A stretch of 64,000 nucleotides of DNA from sequence record KM672662.1. One strand, given 5' to 3'. This DNA comes from Acinetobacter phage YMC13/03/R2096. A program made the translations under genes and the position numbers. Under the pieces are notes generated by a model. That model ran no database searches, was not told the DNA's origin, and saw only the letters and a list, made by a program, of their open reading frames with translations. The first letter of the stretch is position 1; each line of letters starts with the position of its first letter. Below, piece by piece: positions 16,051 to 51,572 of this stretch.

Positions 16051-16136
16051 GGGTGATGTTGGGGTGTTGGTCAACCCCATCAGACTGTAAATCTGACGTG
16101 AAAGCTGTCTAGGTTCGAATCCTAGATCACCCACCA
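16051..16136 (+). tRNA. tRNA-Tyr (GTA)
   Basis: Acceptor GGGTGAT/ATCACCC. Anticodon loop is ctGTAaa. Long variable arm. T-arm is GGTTCGAATCC. CCA is encoded. Confidence 0.8.
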
Positions 16137-16139
16137 AAT

Positions 16140-16214
16140 AGTACCTTAGTTCAGGGGTAGAACGCAGAACTGATAATTCTGAGGTCGATGGTTCGAAACC
16201 ATCAGGTACTACCA
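16140..16214 (+). tRNA. tRNA-Ile (GAT)
   Basis: Acceptor AGTACCT/AGGTACT pairs perfectly. Loop is ctGATaa. CCA is encoded. Confidence 0.8.
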
Positions 16215-16243
16215 ATTTAAAAGTTTTTAAAAGTTTATTCAGG

Positions 16244-16315
16244 TCTAGTGTAGCACAACGGTAGTGCAGCAGACTGTTAATCTGTTGGTTGTTGGTTCGA
16301 ATCCAGCCTCTAGAG
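16244..16315 (+). tRNA. tRNA-Asn (GTT)
   Basis: Loop ctGTTaa, D-stem GCAC/GTGC and G73. The acceptor has one mismatch and no CCA is encoded. Confidence 0.55.
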
Positions 16316-17057
16316 CCTGAGTAAATTAAGAATTACCCTTCGGGGTATGGGTCGTGTATAACCCTTAGATAAACTGCAAAACAGTATAAAGTCGTAACGG
16401 CAGTTATGGCGCAGAGTAAAAATCTGTCAAGTACACACTCAAGGTATCATACTTATGTGGCGTAGAGCCAATCGGTGTAAACCATTTAAGTATGGGGGTG
16501 TAATGCTCCTGAGTCGATAGGCAATAAGAGAACTTGAAGGTATCTAGCGAAGTTGATTGTCAAGTCAAAACGCTGTTTACCATTGTGAGAGGTATATAGA
16601 GTTTAACAGGTGGTGCTGAATCTCGTAGTCCTAAACCAAGTGGACAATATATGCTTGAAACATCGTGCATGGTAAAGCACATTAGGTAGTGTGGTATTGA
16701 TGGGTTCAAAAGATCTGTTAGCCACAGAGAAACCACTATCTATGCAATACAAATTTCATTTTAGGAAAAAATTAAATTCAAAAGTGTTTCTCACGTTGGC
16801 ATGAAAGGTGCTTACATAGTAATGGGTTGTCCATTGCACATTTAACCTGAAAGGTTATTTGTATTTTCATGAAAGGATTATGTTTGGTAGGCATACTAGC
16901 ATAGTTTGAGTATTGGGAGAGTAGTTCCAACGTCTAAGAGTGGTTAGCTATACTGACCAGCACTGATCACTACTATATAAAGTATAGTGGATAATGAGGG
17001 AAAAGATAATCCTCTCAAGGTGGTCATTTAAACGTGTAATCTCAGCGTTTTACTTGT

Positions 17058-17132
17058 GGCTCTGTAGCATAGTGGATTATGCGCCTCCCTGTCTAGGAGA
17101 AAAACGCCAGTTCGAGTCTGGTCAGAGTCGCC
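17058..17132 (+). tRNA. tRNA-Asp (GTC)
   Basis: Acceptor GGCTCTG/CAGAGTC. Loop is ctGTCta. G73. CCA is encoded. Confidence 0.75.
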
Positions 17133-17136
17133 AGTA

Positions 17137-17211
17137 TTGTCGTATAGTGTAATGGTTAGCACAGAAGACTTTGACTCTTCTAGTTTAGGTTCGAGTCCTA
17201 ATTCGACTACC
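17137..17211 (+). tRNA. tRNA-Gln (TTG)
   Basis: Anticodon stem GAAGA/TCTTC pairs perfectly. Loop is ctTTGac. T-arm is TTAGG-TTCGAGT-CCTAA. The acceptor has one mismatch. Confidence 0.6.
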
Positions 17212-17214
17212 AAA

Positions 17215-17290
17215 TGGGTCACTAGCACAATGGTAGTGCAGTTGCTTTGCAAGCATCAGGTTAAGGGTTCGAGTCCCTTGTGTATCCACC
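17215..17290 (+). tRNA. tRNA-like element, anticodon probably TGC (Ala). Acceptor pairing is poor.
   Basis: D-stem GCAC/GTGC, loop ttTGCaa, T-arm AAGGG-TTCGAGT-CCCTT and a CCA end. Only 5 of 7 acceptor base pairs could be formed by hand. Confidence 0.35.
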
Positions 17291-17292
17291 AA

Positions 17293-17368
17293 TATTCCAT
17301 TCGACTAGCGGTTAGGTCGCTTCCCTTTCAAGGAAGTAGCACGAGTTCGAATCTCGTATGGAATACCA
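17293..17368 (+). tRNA. tRNA-Glu (TTC)
   Basis: Acceptor ATTCCAT/ATGGAAT pairs perfectly. Stem CTTCC/GGAAG. Loop ctTTCaa. CCA is encoded. Confidence 0.8.
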
Positions 17369-17370
17369 AT

Positions 17371-17447
17371 AGGACGTTAGCTCAGTTGGTTAGAGCAAGA
17401 GCCTTTTAAGTTCGAGGTCATAGGTTCAAATCCTATACGTCCTACCA
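17371..17447 (+). tRNA. tRNA-Lys (TTT)
   Basis: Acceptor AGGACGT/ACGTCCT pairs perfectly. D-arm is GCTCAGTTGGTTAGAGC. Loop ctTTTaa. CCA is encoded. Confidence 0.8.
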
Positions 17448-17452
17448 ACAAT

Positions 17453-17526
17453 GGTGACTTTGGTGTAATGGTTTGCATCACTCCCTGTGAAGGAGAAGGT
17501 CAGGGTTCAAATCCCGAAGTCACACC
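17453..17526 (+). tRNA. tRNA-His (GTG) with G-1
   Basis: Loop ctGTGaa. Acceptor GTGACTT/AAGTCAC is preceded by an extra G. CCA is encoded. Confidence 0.65.
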
Positions 17527-18225
17527 AAGAATTTTAAGAATTTCAAACGAGTAGAGGTACAGTCCTGAAAGTTTGAAAGTGGGGCGACACCTGCCTGAAG
17601 TAGTAGCTAATAATGGCCTGTTAGTGAATCTAAGTGGTGTGACTTAACTGACTTGGAGAGAAAGGTCGGGGCAGAGCACAAGTAGCTGAGATGGATTAGC
17701 GCTACCCTGAAGAGGTTGAGAGGTTGGATCGTTACCAACATTGTGCACCAAATTTTTAAAAGAAGAATTATTTTAGGATTACCATAACCTAAAGGCTCGA
17801 AGGGGCGGTCTGCAACATCGTTGTTGGTGAGTTGAAGTCTCACATGGTAATCCAAAGTGATTTTTATAGAGGTTAAACCAGATAGGTTCTGGGACACCCT
17901 GCTAAGGTGATCGTGTTAGAAATAGCATTCGGATCGAGACCGATGGCCTCTGCCAAATTTGTTGTGCGCTCCACAGGTTGATCCTGTTACGGTTATCCTC
18001 AAGACCAGACCGCAACAAAGCAACATCAATGGCTTGTCTAAAGTAACGCTGTTGATGGGGCAAATGCAGACACCGATTCGCCTCTGACCTAGTTAAGCAC
18101 ACTAATCGGTTTTTTCTTAGGGCTATTGGACAGGTAATTACCCCTCCTTTAGTTACGACAAGATATCTTCGTGGCTCGCTACCTTGAAGGCATCCCAGTT
18201 AGGGTTCTGGTTAAAAACTCACTAC

Positions 18226-18300
18226 AGTCCCTTAGCTCAATCGGGAGAGCAACACTCTTACAAGGTGAAGGTAGTAGGTTCGAAACCTACAGGGACTACC
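18226..18300 (+). tRNA. tRNA-Val (TAC)
   Basis: Acceptor AGTCCCT/AGGGACT pairs perfectly. Loop ctTACaa. T-arm is GTAGG-TTCGAAA-CCTAC. CCA is encoded. Confidence 0.75.
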
Positions 18301-18301
18301 A

Positions 18302-18391
18302 AGGTGGGTAGCGTCAAGGTGACAAAGCGGGCTTGAACCCCGTGCCAATTGTGATGAGCAGTTGAGAGTTCGATTCTTTTACCCATCGCCA
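18302..18391 (+). tRNA. tRNA-Ser (TGA), class II
   Basis: Acceptor GGTGGGT/ACCCATC. Stem GCGGG/CCCGT. Loop ctTGAac. Long variable arm. G73 and CCA. Confidence 0.6.
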
Positions 18392-18392
18392 A

Positions 18393-18466
18393 GCGTTTAT
18401 AGTGTAGTGGTAACACCCTGTACTTCCAATTCAGTATCTTCGGTTCGAATCCGAATAGACGCTCCA
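18393..18466 (+). tRNA. tRNA-Gly (TCC)
   Basis: Acceptor GCGTTTA/TAGACGC. Loop ctTCCaa. T-arm is TTCGG-TTCGAAT-CCGAA. U73 and CCA. Confidence 0.75.
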
Positions 18467-18477
18467 GATTATGTTTA

Positions 18478-18600
18478 TGGACACTTCCTAAGGTTCTTTC
18501 TACAGGTTCGAAACTGTTTTAAGAATTGCTGGTGCTAGGTTTAGCGTCAAGAATCATTCGAAGGGTTCTTGGGGTGGTGAGTTCGATTCTCACAGTGTTC
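18478..18600 (+). ncRNA. aberrant 123-nt tRNA-like element
   Basis: GGACACT pairs with AGTGTTC on 7 of 7 positions, enclosing about 110 nt. Inside are two T-arm-like hairpins (ACAGG-TTCGAAA-CTGT and GTGAG-TTCGATT-CTCAC) and a 6-bp stem CAAGAA/TTCTTG. There is no canonical anticodon arm and no CCA. Confidence 0.3.
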
Positions 18601-18619
18601 CCCCTATTTTAAAGTTTAT

Positions 18620-18696
18620 CTCTGTGTAGCTCAGTTTGGTAGAGCACTCGCTTTGGGAGTGAGGGGTCGTAAGTTCAATTCTTACTACAGAGACCA
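18620..18696 (+). tRNA. tRNA-Pro (TGG)
   Basis: Acceptor CTCTGTG/TACAGAG. Stem CTCGC/GTGAG. Loop ttTGGga. T-arm is GTAAG-TTCAATT-CTTAC. CCA is encoded. Confidence 0.7.
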
Positions 18697-18783
18697 GTTA
18701 TGAAGTGTTTGTACAGCTATCAGCTCACCGTTTAAAGGATACGGACAAGTCGGCTCGACTAAAGACTCACTTCATATGTTTTT

Positions 18784-18860
18784 GGGTAGTTGAAGGGAAT
18801 GGCATACCTTTCACGCTTAGAACGTGAAGTTTCTGAGTTCGAGTCTCAGACTACCTACCA
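18784..18860 (+). tRNA. class-I tRNA with anticodon TAG, presumably Leu (CUA/CUG)
   Basis: Acceptor GGGTAGT/ACTACCT. Stem TCACG/CGTGA pairs perfectly. Loop ctTAGaa. Variable loop is 5 nt. A73 and CCA. Confidence 0.6.
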
Positions 18861-18866
18861 AATTCT

Positions 18867-18942
18867 GGGGATATAGCCCAACGGCAGAGGCAAGAGGTTT
18901 AAACCCTCTCAAGTTTCAGTTCGAATCTGAATATCCCTACCA
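18867..18942 (+). tRNA. class-I tRNA with anticodon TAA, presumably Leu (UUA/UUG)
   Basis: Acceptor GGGGATA/TATCCCT. Stem AGAGG/CCTCT pairs perfectly. Loop ttTAAac. Variable loop is 5 nt. T-arm is TTCAG-TTCGAAT-CTGAA. A73 and CCA. Confidence 0.6.
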
Positions 18943-18957
18943 GTTTAGGAGTGCTAC

Positions 18958-19239
18958 ATGGAAGTATTACTTGTTAGTGATTGTAGATGCCAAGAGCGTT
19001 ATGACTTTGCAGATATTGTAAAGGATGCTCAAGAACAAGGTATCAAAATTAAGTACACATTAGTTCCTAAGAAGATATCCTATGAAGATAGAACTTACAC
19101 ATTTGTTAATGTTGAAGATCTCACTAAGGATAAAAGTTGTATTGTTGGTAAGAAGTTTGATGATGTCTATTTGACACCAGAAGCTAAAGATGCTATACCT
19201 TTAGGGTTGCTATCATTTATACTTACAAGAATACGTTAA
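18958..19239 (+). CDS. small hypothetical protein embedded in tRNA cluster
   Basis: 93-aa ORF. An AGGAG site lies 8 nt upstream of the ATG. Confidence 0.5.
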   Translation: MEVLLVSDCRCQERYDFADIVKDAQEQGIKIKYTLVPKKISYEDRTYTFVNVEDLTKDKSCIVGKKFDDVYLTPEAKDAIPLGLLSFILTRIR

Positions 19240-19246
19240 GTTTTAA

Positions 19247-19334
19247 GTCCCTACACCCTCCAAGAGCCTTCTAAGCTCTCGACATTAAATAGGGGGAAGG
19301 TAGTCAGAGTGTTCGATTCACTGTGGGGACTCCA
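19247..19334 (+). tRNA. atypical tRNA-like element, anticodon TCT (Arg?). It has a rudimentary D-arm and a 27-nt variable region.
   Basis: Acceptor GTCCCTA/TGGGGAC and stem AGAGC/GCTCT pair perfectly. Loop ctTCTaa. T-arm is GAGTG-TTCGATT-CACTG. CCA is encoded. Confidence 0.4.
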
Positions 19335-19335
19335 A

Positions 19336-19411
19336 GCCGAATTAGCTCAGTTGGTAGAGCAGCGCACTTGTAATGCGAAGGTCGTAGACTCGGATTCTAC
19401 ATTCGGCACCA
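19336..19411 (+). tRNA. tRNA-Thr (TGT)
   Basis: Acceptor GCCGAAT/ATTCGGC pairs perfectly. D-arm is GCTCAGTTGGTAGAGC. Loop ctTGTaa. T-loop is CTCGGAT. CCA is encoded. Confidence 0.75.
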
Positions 19412-19417
19412 TATTTA

Positions 19418-19507
19418 GGTCGTGTAGCTTAAAGAAAGCAAGAGGATTTATAAACCTTTTCACTAGATAAGTGCTTGATGTGGGGGCAGTACCCACCACG
19501 ACTACCA
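19418..19507 (+). tRNA. class-II tRNA-like element with a 9-nt anticodon loop (AUUUAUAAA); identity unresolved
   Basis: Acceptor GGTCGTG/CACGACT. D-stem GCTT/AAGC. Stem AGAGG/CCTTT encloses the 9-nt loop. Long variable arm. T-arm is GTGGG-GGCAGTA-CCCAC. A73 and CCA. Confidence 0.4.
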
Positions 19508-19509
19508 AT

Positions 19510-19579
19510 AAGTCCCCCTCTGGGAGGGAAGAGGTCTCCAAAACCACTTAGCTGTGTTCGATTCACAGGGGATTTGCCA
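19510..19579 (+). tRNA. tRNA-Trp (CCA), short 70-nt form
   Basis: Acceptor AAGTCCC/GGGATTT. Loop ctCCAaa. T-arm is CTGTG-TTCGATT-CACAG. G73 and CCA. The D-arm is compact. Confidence 0.55.
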
Positions 19580-19729
19580 AATTAGATTAAGATGTTGGTG
19601 CGTGACAACCTTAATCGGCATGATTTTAGTTTATGTCGATGTGATAAACATGGCTAGATAGATATGTCGATAAAAACTAGAAATTAAAACACGTAGTATT
19701 GAAATGTTAAAAATAATTAAACAAAACAC

Positions 19730-19758
19730 TTGACAAATAGATTTTTAGTGTTATATAT
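19730..19758 (+). promoter_or_regulatory. promoter (TTGACA, 16-17-nt spacer, TATATA/TATAAT) upstream of tRNA-Met and thioredoxin
   Basis: Near-consensus -35 and -10 elements. Confidence 0.5.
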
Positions 19759-19783
19759 AATATATAAGCAATTAAGTTTTCAT

Positions 19784-19858
19784 AGCGAGGTAGTGTAACG
19801 GTTTGCACAGGGGACTCATAATCCTCTGGTTTGGGTTCGAATCCCAACTTCGCTTCCA
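19784..19858 (+). tRNA. tRNA-Met/fMet or Ile2 (CAT)
   Basis: Acceptor AGCGAGG/CTTCGCT. Stem GGGGA/TCCTC. Loop ctCATaa. T-arm is TTGGG-TTCGAAT-CCCAA. CCA is encoded. Confidence 0.7.
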
Positions 19859-20240: not shown

Positions 20241-20408
20241 TCCAACCCCACTAACCAAATAACTGTTATGGATGACACAAGTCAATAATAGGGAATAATT
20301 AAGGTTAGTGGGTTTTCTTATTTATAATGACATTTCGTGTAGATTTAAGAGGTGGTGCTTACTTGTCCTAGGCATCACCCCTTAAGTTATCAACATAGAG
20401 GACAAGCT

Positions 20409-20903
20409 ATGGAAGAAATTTGGAAGCCTGTTGAAGGTTTTGGTGGCTATGAAGTTAGTGATTTGGGTCGTGTACGTAAGGTTGACGGAACTATTGTTAA
20501 TCTATTCAACCATCCGCAAGGATACCTAAAAGTAGCCCTTAAGGTTGCTGGCCAAAAGGTTAGTAAGAAGTACGTGCATAGGCTTGTAGCTGCTGCATTT
20601 ATACCTAACCCAGACAACCTTCCTTATGTAAATCATAAGAATGGCAAGCAGTGGTGTAATGAGGTTGATAACCTTGAGTGGATATCCTCTAAAGATAACC
20701 ATACACATGCTCGTGAGACTGGTCTTATTGACTATTACAAGTCACACCGAGTAGTTTCTGTCGAGGATGTACGATACATACGTAAGCATATAAAACCTTA
20801 CGATAAAGAATTCGGTAATGGTGCTATTGCAAAGCGATTGGGCTTAAGCCGAGACCAAGTTACTGACATTGCCCTGTACCGGAATTACAAAGACGTGATA
20901 TAG
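20409..20903 (+). CDS. free-standing HNH homing endonuclease
   Basis: EVSDLGRVR..., a NUMOD4-like N-terminus, and YVNHKNGKQWCNEVDNLEWISSKDNHTHA (HNH_3). ATG at 20409 follows AGAGGA. It sits immediately upstream of the intron-containing terminase gene. Confidence 0.7.
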   Translation: MEEIWKPVEGFGGYEVSDLGRVRKVDGTIVNLFNHPQGYLKVALKVAGQKVSKKYVHRLVAAAFIPNPDNLPYVNHKNGKQWCNEVDNLEWISSKDNHTHARETGLIDYYKSHRVVSVEDVRYIRKHIKPYDKEFGNGAIAKRLGLSRDQVTDIALYRNYKDVI

Positions 20904-20912
20904 GAGGTATTA

Positions 20913-20990
20913 ATGTCGAATATATTTGCACCGTGTAGTCCAGTGCAAGCAAAGTTACTGCAAAGTGATGCAACAATTACAGTTTATGGT
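20913..20990 (+). CDS. terL: terminase large subunit, exon 1 (MSNIFAPCSPVQAKLLQSDATITVYG)
   Basis: ATG follows AGGAGG. The frame hits TGA right after ..VYGG and a group I intron follows. The exon end is approximate, 20990 or 20994. Confidence 0.6.
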
Positions 20991-21312
20991 GGGTGAATAT
21001 AGGCTCCTTTAAGTAGTAATACTTATCGAATAACCTTGTGAAATGCTGGAAACCCCTTAGAGCCTTGAGTACCGAAGTGTAACAACCTTAAGGATTGGGC
21101 AATCAGCAGGGAAGCCTCTTATTAGAGGAACCCTCAACGACTATCGAAAGGGTAACGAACCGAGTAGAGTAGGGGCAAGTGTCCCGAAGTGCAAGGCACC
21201 TCAAGTAGGTGAAGATATAGTCTGGACTCATGGGAAACCTTGAGCATGCAATTGGCTAATGTGCTGTTGCATGGGTTGGCTCTAACGAAGCCTTCTTAAC
21301 ACAATCACTATG
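20991..21312 (+). ncRNA. group I intron 1 in terL (ORF-less, about 320 nt)
   Basis: Contains conserved group I core elements: an R-like element CAACGACTAT and an S-like element GAAGATATAGTCTG. It also has the blocks CCTTTAAGT..ACTTATCGAATAACC, GAAATGCTGGAAACCCC and CAATCAGCAG, which are shared with intron 2 and with the nrdB intron. It ends ..CACTATG (omega-G). Confidence 0.65.
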
Positions 21313-21382
21313 GGGTCTGCGAAAACCTATGGAGGTCTACTAAGACACCTTCAATATGTAAATAGTCCTCATTATGTTGGGT
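21313..21382 (+). CDS. terL: terminase large subunit, exon 2 (GSAKTYGGLLRHLQYVNSPHYVG, P-loop region)
   Basis: A 23-codon open frame lies between the two introns. GSAKT preceded by exon-1 YG gives a Walker-A-like segment. Confidence 0.55.
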
Positions 21383-21631
21383 GAAAATACATGCCCCTTT
21401 AAGTGGTGACACTTATCGAATAACCCCTCTAATTGCTGGGAACCCTCTTTGAGGCAATCAGCAGCCAAGCCCAGCAGGGAAGGTTCAACGACTATTCCGA
21501 CAGGAAGTACACTCAAGTGAGTGGAAACGGGGGGCATCTCGCAGAGATGATGATATAGTCTGATCTACATGGTGACATGTAGCAAGGTTAAAACCTTGGA
21601 GTTAGCTTAACGAGCTAACACTAACAAAATG
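21383..21631 (+). ncRNA. group I intron 2 in terL (ORF-less, about 250 nt)
   Basis: Begins GAAAATACATGCCCCTTTAAGTGG..ACTTATCGAATAACC. Contains GCTGGGAACCC, CAATCAGCAG, CAACGACTAT (R) and GATGATATAGTCTG (S). A terminal hairpin is followed by ..AACAAAATG (omega-G at 21631). Confidence 0.65.
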
Positions 21632-46106: not shown

Positions 46107-48878
46107 TTATTGACAGTTATCACATTCTTCATGTCGCTTAATATCACCAGATCCCCTCATAGAGTAGATGTAATATAAAGCTAAGATACCTGCATTTTCC
46201 AAAGCATATTTGTGAACCTTCATAATATACTCTGGAGTGTCATTACTTGTAAAATACAAGTTGATTGACTGTTGCTGATCAATATATTGTTGTCGTTGTG
46301 CACACAAATCCAAATGTTTGATCATGTCAATCTCAAAGGCAGTTCTAAAGACATCCTTCTCATGCTGAGTCAACCAGTGAACATGTTGTACAGAACCTTT
46401 ATGCTTATTGATGTCATTGATTACGTCTTCATTGTAAACACCACGTTCCTTCATGATCTCTAGAAGGACCTTATTAACCCTCCAGATATCCCCTCCAGCA
46501 CTCTGCTTAACGAACACCATTGCAACATCCAGACCAATACCTTCAGAAGCACCAGCCATAATCTCTGCTGTTGACTTTGTAGGTGGCATCATCATGGTAG
46601 TGGCATTACGGATTCCTAAATGAGCACACCCTTCAGGCATACCAACTTCACGAGCTAGCCACTTAGAAGCAGCTAAGGTTTGGTCTCTCATACCCTTAAA
46701 GATTTCTTCATTTAACCAGAAGCTCTCAAGGCTACCTACCACAATTCTACGTTTTTGTAGTAGTGTGTGGAAACCTAGTACACCTGTACCAACTGCACGG
46801 AATCTCTTGGTGAAGGCTAAGATTTTTCTAAATGCCAAGGCATCCTCTTTATCTTGAGCCATTCTCGTTTCCATGAACTCAATGTAGTCACTCACATTAC
46901 AGTCTTGCATAACATGCGCAATAAATGCTAAGTGAGGACATCTTGATTTCCACTCATCGTATAAGTCAAGGTTCAAGTTTAGAATTACACAAGAGAATGT
47001 ATGCTTCTCATCACTACCAAGTAACACTTCTTGGCAATTCATTGTATTCAAACCATTGAACATCAACATGTTACGTTTTGGCTCAAGTGCACAATATGTA
47101 TCATCAAATCTTCCTTGGTCGATCACTTCATCAACACATACAAATCTTTCAGCAGAACGTTGAGGTTTTCTTTCACTCCATTTTAGGCGGTGTGTTTTTA
47201 AACCTAACTGACTCAACTTAAAGAGACCTGTACTCGATACAAGAAGACGATAAGCATCTTGGCATTCATACAGTCCTTTATCACCTGTACCATTATTGAG
47301 AGGTAATTCTTTTAGACCACCTACATCCCTCAAGACAACCTTTGAAGAAACACCAAGTGTTTGTAACATCAATTGCACATCTTGTAAGAATGTCTTGTGA
47401 ATGCTTACCACTTGGATAGATTCATTTTCACCATTACGAGCAATAGTTCCATCTGAATCTAGGAGTCCAGCAAACCATTCCAATCGGCTTTCAACAGTGT
47501 ACTCAGATGTTGGTACAAAGAATTTATCCTTAAGCCCTTCACTGTGAGTAAGCTTAATACGATCACCACCTTGAAGTCCTGACACTGAAGAAACGCAAGT
47601 TATATTTTCAAGTAACTCCTTCTTCTTACCATACAAGTATGTGTGTTTTTTACCTTTGTATTCAAAACCATCACCAGTGAAGAATCCATTAGTGTAAGCA
47701 TGTCCGAGGGTCTTGTCACCTAAAATAACTGGTAGATCAAATTTAGATAGTCGATCACCAGACTTCAACTCGTAGGCACGTTTAATGACCTCATTGCCAT
47801 CCTCACCAACAACCTTAAAGCGGTGATACTCTGTGCAATCTAATTCATACCCTGAATCAGTTACCACTTTAACTAACTTCTGATTTTCACCAGTTTTGAT
47901 AATTGTCACTTCAGACCATTCAAAACCATTCCACACCTCGACCTGTTGTCCCTCAAGGTCAGAAATCGTTTGATATCCACCTTTAGTTAAGATTAATGTC
48001 TCAGGTGCAACACACAAATTAGAAGCTTTCGCTGTCATACCTGCATCTTTAAATGCCTGAGCTAAGTGGCGGTTCATTTCATCAATCTTAGTGAAGTAAC
48101 CCTTACCACGCTGCATCTTGATAGCAATAGCTTTAGCTAATAGGGCAACTGCTTCTGGGTCATCCTTGACTAACTTCTCAATGTACTCGTCCTTACATAA
48201 CCATGCTGGGTTATTACTTTCAGGTCGTTTGAATAGGTACTTTAAAACTTCCTCAAACTCAGGATGTTCAATACTAACAGCATAAGATAAACTACCTCTA
48301 CGGCTACCTTGAACAACCTCATCCATACAATTAATCAAGTCACGAATGACAGGCATCACCCCACCACCATAACCACCTCTAGGCAGTTTCTTACCTTTAT
48401 AGGCCCAGTCATCAACTGAGTAAGATGTACCATGCGAGTGCTTAGTCAAGATACCTGCTTCAGTCACACAATCGTAACGAGAGAACAAGTTGTCACCAAC
48501 ATAACCACCAGCACAACTTACTGTTGACCCCCTTTCAGGTAAACCACTGTTCGCCAATAAAGGAGTTGAACAAGACACATAACCATCCCAAAGTACGTCA
48601 AAAAACACTTCCTCCCAAGTTTTACCAGCCGTATAAGTATCCACATTCCACCAAGAAGGGTACTTATCTGGTGCATGTTTAGCTAAAGTCTTAGCAATCA
48701 TTTTATAGCGAGATTTTACAGTCTCACCATTCCAAGAATATTTTTCAAAGAACAATTGAGTACCACCAGTGGTAAACCATTTAGGGATCTCTCCATGTTC
48801 TTGTAGTTTTTTTCTGAGTTGACTGTAACTATCAACCCCGTATAATTCCAATGTTTCTAAATAAGATAAAACAGCCAC
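46107..48878 (-). CDS. nrdA: ribonucleotide reductase large subunit (class I NrdA/NrdE-like) containing an intein
   Basis: N-terminal ATP-cone-like region. The active-site motif ASNLC is interrupted after the Cys and resumes as CQEVLL. The C-terminus carries the CxxC tail ECDNCQ. Confidence 0.85.
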   Translation of the reverse strand: MAVLSYLETLELYGVDSYSQLRKKLQEHGEIPKWFTTGGTQLFFEKYSWNGETVKSRYKMIAKTLAKHAPDKYPSWWNVDTYTAGKTWEEVFFDVLWDGYVSCSTPLLANSGLPERGSTVSCAGGYVGDNLFSRYDCVTEAGILTKHSHGTSYSVDDWAYKGKKLPRGGYGGGVMPVIRDLINCMDEVVQGSRRGSLSYAVSIEHPEFEEVLKYLFKRPESNNPAWLCKDEYIEKLVKDDPEAVALLAKAIAIKMQRGKGYFTKIDEMNRHLAQAFKDAGMTAKASNLCVAPETLILTKGGYQTISDLEGQQVEVWNGFEWSEVTIIKTGENQKLVKVVTDSGYELDCTEYHRFKVVGEDGNEVIKRAYELKSGDRLSKFDLPVILGDKTLGHAYTNGFFTGDGFEYKGKKHTYLYGKKKELLENITCVSSVSGLQGGDRIKLTHSEGLKDKFFVPTSEYTVESRLEWFAGLLDSDGTIARNGENESIQVVSIHKTFLQDVQLMLQTLGVSSKVVLRDVGGLKELPLNNGTGDKGLYECQDAYRLLVSSTGLFKLSQLGLKTHRLKWSERKPQRSAERFVCVDEVIDQGRFDDTYCALEPKRNMLMFNGLNTMNCQEVLLGSDEKHTFSCVILNLNLDLYDEWKSRCPHLAFIAHVMQDCNVSDYIEFMETRMAQDKEDALAFRKILAFTKRFRAVGTGVLGFHTLLQKRRIVVGSLESFWLNEEIFKGMRDQTLAASKWLAREVGMPEGCAHLGIRNATTMMMPPTKSTAEIMAGASEGIGLDVAMVFVKQSAGGDIWRVNKVLLEIMKERGVYNEDVINDINKHKGSVQHVHWLTQHEKDVFRTAFEIDMIKHLDLCAQRQQYIDQQQSINLYFTSNDTPEYIMKVHKYALENAGILALYYIYSMRGSGDIKRHEECDNCQ
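47037..48014 (-). other. intein (326 aa) with LAGLIDADG homing-endonuclease domain inside nrdA
   Basis: Starts with Cys289 (CVAPETLILT). Two dodecapeptide motifs: YTNGFFTGDGF and EWFAGLLDSDGT. Ends ..LMFNGLNTMN, with Cys as the +1 residue. The joined extein reads ASNL-CQEVLL. Confidence 0.75.
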
Positions 48879-48888
48879 AAATACCTCC

Positions 48889-49395
48889 TTACTTACTTCC
48901 TTGTAATCCTTTATTATCTTCTGAATCTTCCATGATCAGATTCAAGAGTTCTTCTTGTTCCTCTTGTTCTTTCTTCCTCATATTATTCCAAGCTTCTACA
49001 AACATAGCCTCAGACCAGTTACTTTCATACTCTCGGTTTTGACCCTTAGTGAAGAAATCTGGCATCTGGTAACCGTATGTATTTAAGTTAAACATCTTAG
49101 CCACTTTAGAATCCTTCTGAGTAACTTGGAACTCTTTAGGGATTTTATCTACAGGAACCTGCAAACGAGTCAAGAAAGTAAAGATTCGGAAGCGCACAAA
49201 ATCAATGTACTCGGCTGTTGTATACCCATTGAGTGAACCTGAAGGGATTGCCATATCAATGATTCGCTTCTCATGCTCTAACACGTAGTGGCAAGCTTGT
49301 AGTAACTTTCCAAACATTTCTTCATGCTCATGTAGAGGTTTTCCTACTTCATGGAAATAGGTGTTAAAATGTTCTGCGGCGTAAATTCCATGCAA
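48889..49395 (-). CDS. nrdB: ribonucleotide reductase small subunit, exon 2
   Basis: LHGIYAAEHFNTYFHEV...GSLNGYTTAEYIDFVRFRIFTFLTRLQVP aligns with the C-terminal half of R2. It supplies H241-equivalent and the acidic C-terminus. The exon starts after omega-G of ..CCCATG. Confidence 0.65.
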   Translation of the reverse strand: MHGIYAAEHFNTYFHEVGKPLHEHEEMFGKLLQACHYVLEHEKRIIDMAIPSGSLNGYTTAEYIDFVRFRIFTFLTRLQVPVDKIPKEFQVTQKDSKVAKMFNLNTYGYQMPDFFTKGQNREYESNWSEAMFVEAWNNMRKKEQEEQEELLNLIMEDSEDNKGLQGSK

Positions 49396-50251
49396 CATGG
49401 GTTGTTCAGGTGTGCTCGTTACACACACCCCGTAGAGTACTTCACCACTCAAGTACTCACAGCTTACACTTTCATGTAAGATCAGACTATATCATCACCA
49501 CAAGGTTTTACTTGTTGTGGTGCTTCCCACTTCGGTCTTACTTAAGACCTACTCCCCGAAGGGATAGTCGTTGAGGATTCTAAACCTAATTCCAACCACA
49601 AAGCTTTCCAACGTTTTTTATGCCTAATTAACGAAACATATCTACTGTGTATTCCAAAAACTCTAGAGATCTGTTTGTTAGTAAAACCTGCTAAGCACAT
49701 ACGAATAACCTTTTCAGCATCATCCTTTGTCAGTTTAACAGTCGAGTTCCTATATCTAGCACCACTTAACGAGACATTTTTATTGGGATTTTCCCAAAAA
49801 TTACGATAGTGGTGATGCACATTATCCTCTTGTTTTACAACCTCTAAATTTTCTATACAATTGTTTAGCTTGTTAGCATCAATATGATTTATTACAAATC
49901 CCTTTGGTATAACACCTTTGATGCACTCCCAAACGAATCTGTGACCATTTTCAGTCACACCATTGAATTCATATTGCCGATAACCTGTAGTTGATAAACA
50001 GCCTCTCATAAGCTGTCCTCTCTTTCCATACACATTTCCAAATACATCGCAACTGTATCCAGAAAATTTTGGATGTTTAAATTTTTCCATAATTACCTCC
50101 ATAATAAGAGGTTGGAATTAGGTTTAGCTTTCCTGCTGATTGCCCAATACTTTAGATTTTTACTCAGTGTTTAAATTTTTCAACACTTCAGTACTAAAGT
50201 CTCTAAGGGGTTTCCAGCATTTCAAGAAGTTTATTGAGGACTTGCAAATTA
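49396..50251 (-). ncRNA. group I intron in nrdB (about 856 nt) carrying an HNH homing endonuclease ORF
   Basis: On the - strand it begins TAATTTGC.. right after exon codon GAT. It contains GAAATGCTGGAAACCCCTTAGAG and GGGCAATCAGCAGG. After the ORF come CAACGACTAT (R), GATGATATAGTCTGATCTTACATG (S) and 3' hairpins. Confidence 0.65.
49542..50102 (-). CDS. intron-encoded HNH homing endonuclease
   Basis: 186 aa. Contains ..GYRQYEFNGVTENGHRFVWECIKGVIPKGFVINHIDANKLNNCIENL, an HNH motif with N and H residues, plus a C-terminal helix-turn-helix-like region. It lies between intron core elements. Confidence 0.7.
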   Translation of the reverse strand: MEVIMEKFKHPKFSGYSCDVFGNVYGKRGQLMRGCLSTTGYRQYEFNGVTENGHRFVWECIKGVIPKGFVINHIDANKLNNCIENLEVVKQEDNVHHHYRNFWENPNKNVSLSGARYRNSTVKLTKDDAEKVIRMCLAGFTNKQISRVFGIHSRYVSLIRHKKRWKALWLELGLESSTTIPSGSRS

Positions 50252-51016
50252 ATCCTCATCTAGTGCACTCTGATTAGCAATTTGGGCAATAACTTTAATT
50301 AAGTTAAAACCGTTTGTCTGGAAGCTCTTAAGGATAGCAAAGCTAGAGAATAACAAAGCTGTCTCTGTTAAAGAGAAGCACAAGCATGCAAGCATCTTGT
50401 TTTCATCTCGCATTAACCCATCTAACCATTCCATACGTTCATTGAGCACAGGGTCATCAATGTATGATGTGTAGTAATCATCGGTATCTAGTCCAAGTAC
50501 AATGTTAATCTCATTGTATGTTCGTGCATGGACCATCAACTCAATCATTGCTAAGGCAGAAGCACCAGCACGGGATTCATGTCGAGGGAATACTTTAATG
50601 AATAATCCATTCCAGAATTCATCACCAACAATTAATTCATACTGTAAGAATAAGTGTAGAACTGTTTTTACTGCATGTAGTTGCTCTTTAGTTAGCACAT
50701 ACTCAAGTTCCATCTGGTCATTCTTGACTTCCATTTCACTCTTAAACCACATCTGCTCTTCAAGCTGCTGGTCAGCAATCTCAAGAATCTTTGGGTACTT
50801 AATCTCATAGCCACTATTGGGTGATGTAATACGGGTTTGCACTAACCCAGTTTTCTCTGAATTTAGTGTTTTGTTTATTGTCACATAAACGAATTTCCCT
50901 TCAGGGTTTTTCTCATCCTTGACATTGATGATTACCTTTCCAGTTGGTGGTGGTAAAAATCCAATCTTCTCAACCTGACCTTCGGTTAAATCTACCTCAA
51001 TATTAATTTTAGACAT
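50252..51016 (-). CDS. nrdB: ribonucleotide reductase small subunit, exon 1
   Basis: VGDEFW.., ALAMIELMVHARTY (E115/H118 equivalents), SLTETALLF (E204 equivalent) and ..SALDED. Splicing to exon 2 recreates DED-LH (the E238-x-x-H241 pattern). About 100 aa of the N-terminus is non-homologous. Confidence 0.65.
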
Positions 51017-51066: not shown

Positions 51067-51095
51067 GTAAGGCCACTCAATGGTGGCCCCTTCTG

Positions 51096-51572
51096 TTATT
51101 TACGTTTAATTCTTGCACTGGTAATTCGAGGTTTGTCTGAAGAGCGATGATACTCAATTTCAAAACCCAAATCATTTAAGATGTCTGAAAATTCACGAGA
51201 GGTTAAATTGGAGTCAAACAATGGTACATCCTCACCATAATTCTTGACAACTTTAATACCTTGAATTTCCTTACGAGATACCTTTTCCAAGATTTCTTCA
51301 CAAAATAACTTAGCGAATAAGTCACACAGTGTTTGTACTGCTGGTCGTTTCTCTGGGGTTCGAAAACCGTTCTGGTCCTCTAATGAGTGCCAACCCCACC
51401 AACGACCTTCACCAATGTCAGTCTGTGCAAATAAACTTCGAGTATTTCTTTTGTGATCCTGATAATGCCCAAGTCGAACAATAAAGTTATCTAGAGTATT
51501 CCCTGTCATGTCTACATAATTAGGACGTTTGGTAGGGTCTTTCTCTTGGACTTGGTTTACTGTTTCAATCAT
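51096..51572 (-). CDS. hypothetical protein
   Basis: 158 aa. First gene of the leftward nrd operon. Confidence 0.5.
   Translation of the reverse strand: MIETVNQVQEKDPTKRPNYVDMTGNTLDNFIVRLGHYQDHKRNTRSLFAQTDIGEGRWWGWHSLEDQNGFRTPEKRPAVQTLCDLFAKLFCEEILEKVSRKEIQGIKVVKNYGEDVPLFDSNLTSREFSDILNDLGFEIEYHRSSDKPRITSARIKRK

Follow-up and report, generated by a model that had tools for sequence, protein, structure and literature searches.

A probable mobile group I intron with an HNH homing endonuclease gene in the ribonucleotide reductase gene nrdB of Acinetobacter phage YMC13/03/R2096

In Acinetobacter phage YMC13/03/R2096, the nrdB gene for the small subunit (R2) of a class I ribonucleotide reductase (RNR) is very probably interrupted by a mobile group I intron, which carries the gene of an I-HmuI-type HNH homing endonuclease. 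We analysed positions 48889-51016 on the minus strand, within a stretch of 64,000 nucleotides (nt) of sequence record KM672662.1 that is referred to here as the window. The evidence consists of exact intron boundaries, a fold with covariation, a presence/absence polymorphism among close relatives, a co-conversion signature in the exon flanks and signs that the endonuclease is under purifying selection. That phage RNR genes can harbour introns with homing endonucleases is textbook knowledge (PMC3653736; PMC2248736).

The region is about 98% identical to that of five Acinetobacter baumannii myophages (AM24, Mithridates, Bestia, Herod and Ab15). In the first three of them, nrdB is an uninterrupted gene of 1272 nt that corresponds exactly to exon 1 (765 nt) plus exon 2 (507 nt) of the window, and the intervening sequence of 856 nt (50251..49396) is precisely the segment that they lack. 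Where the window has ...GATGAGGAT (856 nt) TTGCATGGA... in an alignment of four alleles, the sequence of AM24 runs ...GATGAAGAC/CTTCATGGT... (the slash marks the insertion point here and below). Because the intron-less alleles match the two exons, the boundary coordinates 50252 and 49395 are exact; an earlier note on this DNA, made by inspection of the letters, had placed the exon ends at the same two positions and had given the correct length of the intervening sequence. The features of the gene are as follows (ORF, open reading frame; aa, amino acids):

50252..51016, minus strand: nrdB exon 1, 765 nt, 255 codons, ending ...SALDED.
48889..49395, minus strand: nrdB exon 2, 507 nt, 168 codons plus stop, beginning LHGIYAAEH.
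49396..50251, minus strand: group I intron, 856 nt, supported by its absence from AM24, Mithridates and Bestia, by RF00028 scores and by covariation.
50249..51016, minus strand: ORF of 255 aa in the ORF list.
48889..49452, minus strand: ORF in the ORF list.
49542..50102, minus strand: ORF of 186 aa in the ORF list.

Herod and Ab15 have inserts of 322 and 448 nt, respectively, at the same point of nrdB. The Ab15 intron has a 408-nt internal deletion in the endonuclease gene (window 50056..49649). Among these phages of about 98% identity, four allelic states can thus be told apart: intron-less (AM24, Mithridates, Bestia), with an ORF-less intron (Herod), with a deleted endonuclease gene (Ab15), and with an intact one (the window, which is P577-like). 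In GenBank, the nrdB halves of Herod and Ab15 are annotated as separate coding sequences (CDSs), whereas Pseudomonas phage KIL1, which has an intron at the same site, has a joined CDS.

Joining 50252 to 49395 with removal of the 856 nt gives a NrdB protein of 423 aa, the predicted spliced junction being GATGAGGAT/TTGCATGG. A single match to Pfam PF00268 (Ribonuc_red_sm) spans the junction of this product (residues 70-335, E 4e-31, 108.8 bits), in line with the earlier claim that R2 is split over two adjacent minus-strand ORFs. According to an alignment to E. coli R2, exon 1 supplies the metal-ligand equivalents E127, E159, H163, E218 and E254 together with the radical tyrosine equivalent Y167, and exon 2 contributes H257, the equivalent of E. 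coli H241, so that the spliced protein has the complete metal-ligand set and the radical tyrosine. The intron is inserted between D255 and L256, i.e. between the second and third codons of the second E-x-x-H motif (E254-D255/L256-H257); that this motif is rebuilt when ..SALDED is joined to LHGIYAAEH.. had been noticed before, and the alignment agrees. Equivalents of the iron ligands D84, E115, H118, E204 and H241 had been proposed as well. The set is indeed present, but the first ligand is a glutamate (E127) where E. coli R2 has aspartate (D84). All 26 changes that separate the nrdB exons of the window and AM24 are synonymous (0 non-synonymous), which indicates that nrdB is still under selection in intron carriers.

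As to the class of the protein, the R2 proteins of the relatives are annotated as 'class Ia', and the best solved matches of the spliced NrdB belong to the 6CWO/6CWP/6CWQ/8DQ4 group (E about 1e-19), not to E. coli-type R2. 6CWO is a Flavobacterium class Id protein. The first ligand motif of NrdB is spaced E-x-x-x-H (ELMVH).

When the whole window was searched with Rfam at the gathering threshold (50 bits for RF00028), two group I introns in the terminase region were reported, and the nrdB intron was not. With permissive filters, its 3' half (49463-49693) scored 43.6 bits (E 1.4e-9) and a 5' fragment over P4-P5 (50134-50219) 11 bits. The score stays below the cut-off because a 555-nt ORF insert splits the core of the model. 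The ORF-less intron of Herod, identical to that of the window over its first 120 nt and last 181 nt (301 nt), scored 82.4 bits (E 8e-20), and the same-site introns of Ab15 and KIL1 reached 54.9 and 54.0 bits. For the group I fold claimed in the earlier note, the covariance search is positive on the Herod allele and formally borderline, short of 50 bits, on the window itself. As a control, the ORF-containing td and nrdB introns of T4 (T4 134000-146000) were also missed by RF00028 at the gathering threshold. It follows from the T4 result that gathering-level scans with this model systematically miss endonuclease-bearing group I introns.

The intron opens with UAA, an in-frame stop immediately 3' of the 5' splice site. 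The RF00028 match ends at P9 (49463), and the intron runs 67 nt further through P9.1 and P9.2 to its last base G49396 (terminal omega-G), the 3' end reading ...CCCAUG/UUGCAU. We propose the following structural elements:

50252..50257, minus strand: exon strand of P1, GAGGAU, with U50252 in the U.G wobble at the 5' splice site.
50236..50241, minus strand: internal guide sequence of P1, GUCCUC, by inspection and covariation.
50242..50246, minus strand: intron strand of P10, UGCAA, pairing with bases 1-5 of exon 2, UUGCA (49395..49391).
50223..50229, minus strand: 5' strand of P3, CUUCUUG, with the partner UGGGAAG at 49529..49523.
50134..50219, minus strand: P4 (UGCUGG 50219-50214 with UCAGCA 50139-50134), enclosing P5, P5a and the P5 extension.
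50112..50127, minus strand: 5' strand of P6a, a 16-bp (base pair) helix with 49595..49580 that closes the loop holding the endonuclease gene.
49485..49595, minus strand: 3' catalytic core with P6a' (49595-49580), R element/P7 (49574-49565), P7.1 (49564-49553), P7.2 (49549-49534), P3' (49529-49523), P8 (49522-49496) and S element/P7' (49493-49485).
49409..49479, minus strand: P9 (49479-49464, with a GAAA loop), P9.1 (49458-49435) and P9.2 (49429-49409).

By inspection, the P6 helix is also present among the core helices. P7.1 is formed by UCCC/GGGA and P7.2 by GGUCUUA/UAAGACC. With P7.1/P7.2 between P7 and P3' and with the P9.1/P9.2 extensions, the predicted fold is of group IA type, presumably of an IA2-like subgroup according to the Michel-Westhof scheme. 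In its R and S elements, TCAACGACTA and GATATAGTC, the nrdB intron does not differ from the two terminase introns (20975-21244 and 21360-21582), just as had been stated earlier.

Covariation was assessed with an 81-pair model on six same-site homologues with trimmed ORF loops (alignment A2), taken from KIL1 and from metagenomic phage contigs that were found via the endonuclease protein. A MAFFT alignment that included the terminase introns (A1) had the P8 and P9.x helices out of register and was replaced by A2 and a strand-by-strand check. Standard pairs fill 97.7% of the proposed pair cells in the six homologues, compared with 36-47% when the 3' partners were slid by 1-3 columns, a difference that is inflated because the structure model was partly derived from the same sequences. 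The compensatory-pair counts are less affected and are the stronger evidence: 28 of the 81 pairs changed on both sides, and at most seven did so in the slid controls. None of 500 shuffles attained any of the observed covariation measures. Heavy covariation is seen in P7.2 (all five counted pairs), P9, P9.2, P5a and P6a. P1 (GAGGAU/GUCCUC) has six of six pairs including the U.G wobble in all six homologues (100% paired); the variant guide GUUCUC in contig L137 changes a G-C to a G-U pair and keeps the pairing with the exon. In P10 (UGCAA/UUGCA) five of five pairs are formed, with one compensatory exon-guide pair, C-G to U-A, in KIL1 and L137.

Judging from this structure, the GAGGAU at the end of exon 1 would pair with the guide GUCCUC to form P1 with its U.G wobble at the splice site, and attack by a guanosine would release exon 1. 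The start of exon 2, UUGCA, would then pair with the UGCAA beside the guide to form P10, the terminal G49396 would be exchanged and the exons ligated, giving an mRNA for the intact 423-aa R2. Ribosomes would be halted at the splice site by the in-frame UAA at intron positions 1-3.

The endonuclease gene sits in the P6 loop of the intron and is preceded by a small hairpin:

49542..50090, minus strand: HNH homing endonuclease gene, 182 aa from the ATG at 50090; an in-frame upstream ATG at 50102 gives the 186-aa ORF.
50096..50111, minus strand: hairpin CCUCUUAUUAUGGAGG, sequestering the Shine-Dalgarno sequence GGAGG of the endonuclease gene.

The earlier note had read the 186-aa ORF as an HNH endonuclease, to be looked at for HNH and NUMOD families. 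Its HNH nature is borne out by a match to Pfam PF13392 (HNH_3; E 1.9e-12, 47.1 bits against a cut-off of 24.8), which is accompanied by a weak C-terminal helix-turn-helix; the Pfam search of the ORF gave no match to a NUMOD family. Translation probably starts at the second ATG (50090, 182 aa), because this codon lies 5 nt after GGAGG and agrees with the database protein and all homologues. The protein also matches PHROG 59 'HNH endonuclease' (E 9e-28), and in its 182-aa form it is 100% identical to 'putative HNH endonuclease [Acinetobacter phage P577]'. The sole solved relative of the family profile is I-HmuI (1U3E; E 7e-14), matched over the N-terminal DNA-binding region and the HNH motif; the single-sequence match to I-HmuI is weak (E 0.0013). 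Four residues, H69, N77, N81 and N90, are invariant in 25 homologues and lie within the block that aligns to the HNH region of I-HmuI (...VVDHKDGNKDNNLSTNLRWVTQKINV...). They would be the conserved catalytic His and Asn residues of the HNH motif.

At the same nrdB intron site, other phage contigs of about 93-98 kb carry intact homologues with 78, 71 and 54% identity. Among the same-site homologues, the proportion of synonymous differences (pS) is 0.66-0.79, i.e. synonymous sites are saturated, and that of non-synonymous differences (pN) 0.14-0.31; where computable, dN/dS is 0.13-0.16 across four lineages. Such low values mean that the endonuclease protein is under selection. In annotated phages, the closest full-length relatives (37-42% identity) are all encoded inside R2 genes, namely in Vibrio phages, in CB7 and, as YosQ, in SPbeta. 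In Vibrio phage 1.161.O, Pectobacterium phage CB7 and SPbeta, the related HNH genes are found a few codons upstream of the site used in the window, within the same RDExxH segment. The exon-1 ORF of CB7 comprises 549 aa and thereby far exceeds the N-terminal half of R2, which suggests a further insertion. The window has another, free-standing HNH gene at 20352-20903 (plus strand; PHROG 59, E 1e-47), just upstream of the intron-containing terminase gene. Close paralogy between it and the endonuclease of the nrdB intron was ruled out, identity being 21%.

An equivalent of the hairpin that pairs GGAGG is present in all five homologues, with differing hairpin sequences, and we infer that translation of the endonuclease would be restrained by it. 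The last about 18 endonuclease codons (LELGLESSTTIPSGSRS; LELGLESSTTIPSGS...) double as P6a', P6', P7, P7.1 and the start of P7.2, so that translation of the endonuclease and folding of the ribozyme would be expected to be in conflict.

Traces of mobility were found in the exons next to the insertion site. Over the six alleles of the cluster, nrdB has 66 variable sites, only eight of which split intron-plus (window, Ab15, Herod) from intron-minus phages (AM24, Mithridates, Bestia). These eight fixed differences are all synonymous and are located at -19, -4, -1, +1, +3, +9, +15 and +18 from the junction:

49378..50270, minus strand: co-conversion tract, with exon sequence at 50270-50252 and 49395-49378 on either side of the intron, marked by the eight fixed synonymous sites.

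This is the footprint that would be expected from co-conversion during homing. By analogy with its family, the enzyme would nick or cut intron-less nrdB alleles near the insertion site in a co-infection, and repair would transfer the intron to the recipient along with about 20 nt of the adjoining exons. The footprint would also be needed functionally, in that the intron-less sequence GAAGAC/CUU would break both P1 (including the U.G wobble) and P10. As far as can be read from these alleles, the flank signature implies transfer at the DNA level in the recent history of the cluster.

The ORF-less intron of Herod (L003, 4011-4332) differs from that of the window by the replacement of 555 nt (50131..49577) by 21 nt. 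These 21 nt together with the shared flanks form an exact match of 52 nt, in P6, to the terminase intron I1, which Herod carries as well. Ab15, which is without terminase introns, lost its endonuclease gene by a different route, the 408-nt internal deletion. The chimeric P6 of Herod suggests gene conversion between paralogous introns of one genome as a route of losing or gaining an endonuclease gene; in the reverse direction, an ORF-less intron may have gained the endonuclease cassette. We consider it about as likely as not that the cluster shows the life cycle of a homing endonuclease in progress, with gene loss by precise excision via conversion between two paralogous introns as one of its steps. 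To our knowledge, loss of an endonuclease gene by inter-intron gene conversion has not been documented before.

Several points weigh against the view that nrdB holds a splicing and mobile intron. Splicing, the activity and cut site of the endonuclease, and translational control are predictions from sequence. The window's own intron scores below the curated RF00028 cut-off (43.6 vs 50 bits), and the covariation, besides the inflated paired percentage, rests on only six sequences and at most five independent lineages. Moreover, the intron-less alleles deviate from the homing-site consensus at four central positions (-4, -1, +1 and +3), which may make them poor targets of the enzyme, and present-day mobility in the cluster is hypothetical. 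With these points in mind, one may ask if nrdB is simply a split gene, with R2 halves that are translated separately and assemble non-covalently, and with a mere endonuclease cassette between them. In Herod, Ab15 and the P577-like contigs, R2 is recorded as two separate CDSs both by gene callers and in GenBank, an in-frame ATG (49398-49396) directly precedes exon 2 in the window, and a functional RNR gene split without an intron is known from the mobE-split NrdA of Aeromonas phage Aeh1 (PMC3653736). This ATG, however, lacks a Shine-Dalgarno sequence (upstream AACAACCC), is located just 3' of P9.2 and shares its G with the end of the intron, and KIL1 and L137 have GG instead of ATG there, which leaves the fragment with the histidine ligand without a start codon at that position. 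The break falls within the E-x-x-H motif, and separate translation gives no reason why a ribozyme should have been kept by 28 compensatory pairs; we regard it as extremely improbable.

Decay of the intron to a splicing-defective relic, with nrdB as a pseudogene and the phage relying on the RNR of its host, is very improbable, too. The Rfam score below the cut-off would fit a relic, splicing is predicted from sequence, and the long ORF insert and translation into P6a'-P7-P7.1 could disturb folding. On the other hand, all core helices are intact in the window, the core is identical to that of the ORF-less allele scoring 82.4 bits, the exons differ from the intron-less alleles by synonymous changes only (26 against 0), and the same arrangement is retained in phages with endonucleases of as little as 54% identity. 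A more serious alternative, which we still judge unlikely, is that the intron splices while the HNH protein has ceased to act in homing, being inactive, a splicing helper or in some other role, and that the intron is now only inherited vertically. The four central target positions that differ in intron-less relatives could reflect resistant sites, the endonuclease gene has already been lost in two sister phages (Herod and Ab15), and I-TevIII of T4 is itself a defective remnant (RefSeq note). Against this stand the intact ORF with a dN/dS of about 0.15 over four lineages, the invariance of H69, N77, N81 and N90 in 25 homologues, and the flank signature, which implies recent DNA-level transfer within the cluster. 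A mobile group I intron with a homing endonuclease gene thus is our preferred reading of the locus.

Around the locus, we noted a terminator-like hairpin at window positions 51069-51090 (minus strand; 8-bp stem with five G-C pairs), between an upstream ORF of 158 aa (51096-51572) and the start of nrdB. A promoter scan of the locus gave nothing above chance. The large subunit NrdA (46107-48878, minus strand, 923 aa) contains an intein with a LAGLIDADG domain (Pfam Intein_splicing and LAGLIDADG_3). In Mithridates, the NrdA CDS is only 1794 nt long (597 aa), and NrdA proteins of 600 aa with no intein Pfam match listed occur in several metagenomic relatives; the intein may be polymorphic, too. The two terminase introns (20975-21244 and 21360-21582, plus strand) lie in the large-subunit region about 115 nt apart, are ORF-less group I introns with 78.8 and 96.6 bits, and are polymorphic: the first alone is present in Herod, and both are missing from AM24, Mithridates, Bestia and Ab15. 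Finally, a full-length GOLLD RNA (Rfam RF02032, 217.6 bits vs a cut-off of 150) is encoded at 16682-17048 (plus strand), within a tRNA array (16052-19855) in which Rfam found 16 tRNA genes.

The nrdB intron leaves the current understanding of group I introns unchanged. Its consequences concern annotation and experimental use: the records of the cluster (Herod, Ab15 and P577-like contigs) list two R2 fragments plus a stray HNH or hypothetical gene, where one joined nrdB CDS with an intron and a homing endonuclease should stand, and as phages of this cluster are under development against Acinetobacter baumannii, correct gene models matter. The four natural alleles, found in culturable phages of about 98% identity, are a ready system for studying homing, the length of co-conversion tracts, target-site resistance and endonuclease loss. 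In addition, a Gram-negative member joins the endonuclease lineage (YosQ and the relatives in Vibrio and Pectobacterium phages) that recurs in DNA coding for the R2 E-x-x-H motif.

Among known systems, the true relatives, as judged from sequence, are the same-site intron of KIL1 and, for the endonuclease, YosQ from the SPbeta bnrdF intron and I-HmuI. The exact insertion site of the window is shared by KIL1 and by the contigs L133, L136 and L137. In KIL1 (Pseudomonas phages vB_PsyM_KIL1-KIL5, Flaumdravirus, KU130126), the R2 site SAIDED/LHG is identical, and the intron, whose CDS is annotated as a join, has the P1 guide GUCCUC, the helix architecture and the position of the endonuclease gene in P6 in common with that of the window. 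It differs in that only a 19-codon endonuclease remnant is kept (MRKFHPIFTRYSTDIDGNV, followed by a stop), whereas the gene of the window is intact, and in the host genus; identity between the introns, about 74%, was detected over the 5' 131 nt only. A literature search found no paper describing the KIL introns. Introns go unmentioned in a review, and a related paper reported only a terminase intein and HNH genes in TaPaz. A related-locus search of IMG/VR with the spliced NrdB revealed no relatives. The pattern GAGGATTAAN{4,8}GTCCTC mostly gave chance matches in IMG/VR, with KIL1 as the only same-site R2 intron. Four IMG/VR contigs (L024, L026, L045 and L104) have group I introns that begin with UAA and show the same GAGGAU/GUCCUC P1 in unrelated genes; at least two of them carry ORFs in different loops. 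They were not used here.

Like that of the window, the group I intron in bnrdF of SPbeta interrupts an R2 gene in the stretch encoding the same E-x-x-H motif. YosQ shares 41% identity with the window endonuclease over residues 50-176 of the latter (E 5e-19) and reads S-T-T-I through the ribozyme R element in the same frame, ending ...ERSTTIA where the window has ...ESSTTIPSGSRS, each followed by a stop codon. The adjacent large-subunit gene carries an intein in both phages. In contrast to the window, SPbeta bnrdF is a class Ib nrdF of a temperate phage of Gram-positive bacteria, and its insertion, at a junction predicted from sequence, would precede the R of IRDEAIH, 12 nt or more upstream of that in the window. 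Taken together with CB7 and Vibrio phage 1.161.O, and with junctions placed by ORF ends and R2 consensus, these insertions would be 9-16 nt upstream. I-HmuI, from the DNA polymerase intron of phage SPO1 (1U3E), is likewise intron-encoded in a lytic phage, with a different target gene and intron.

I-HmuI nicks one strand. The parallel to the T4 nrdB intron and I-TevIII, which the earlier note had drawn, holds for the kind of element: T4 carries a group IA intron of the self-splicing kind in its R2 gene, with an endonuclease of the H-N-H family (RefSeq note; PMC3653736). The T4 intron is located at another site (YVSFAC/TFNF, about 28 alignment columns upstream), and its I-TevIII copy is defective (RefSeq note) in contrast to the intact ORF of the window. 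Homology of the two endonucleases was rejected, as no significant similarity to the T4 remnant was found, and the likeness is one of analogy. Another case is the nrdF intron IVS6 with I-BthII in the Bacillus cereus group. This group IA intron, also of an R2 gene, is polymorphic between closely related strains and occurs with full-length and remnant endonuclease genes; experiments have demonstrated both splicing and cleavage (Nord and Sjoberg 2008, PMC2248736). I-BthII, however, is a GIY-YIG enzyme, bacterial and chromosomal, whereas the endonuclease of the window is of the HNH type and phage-borne.

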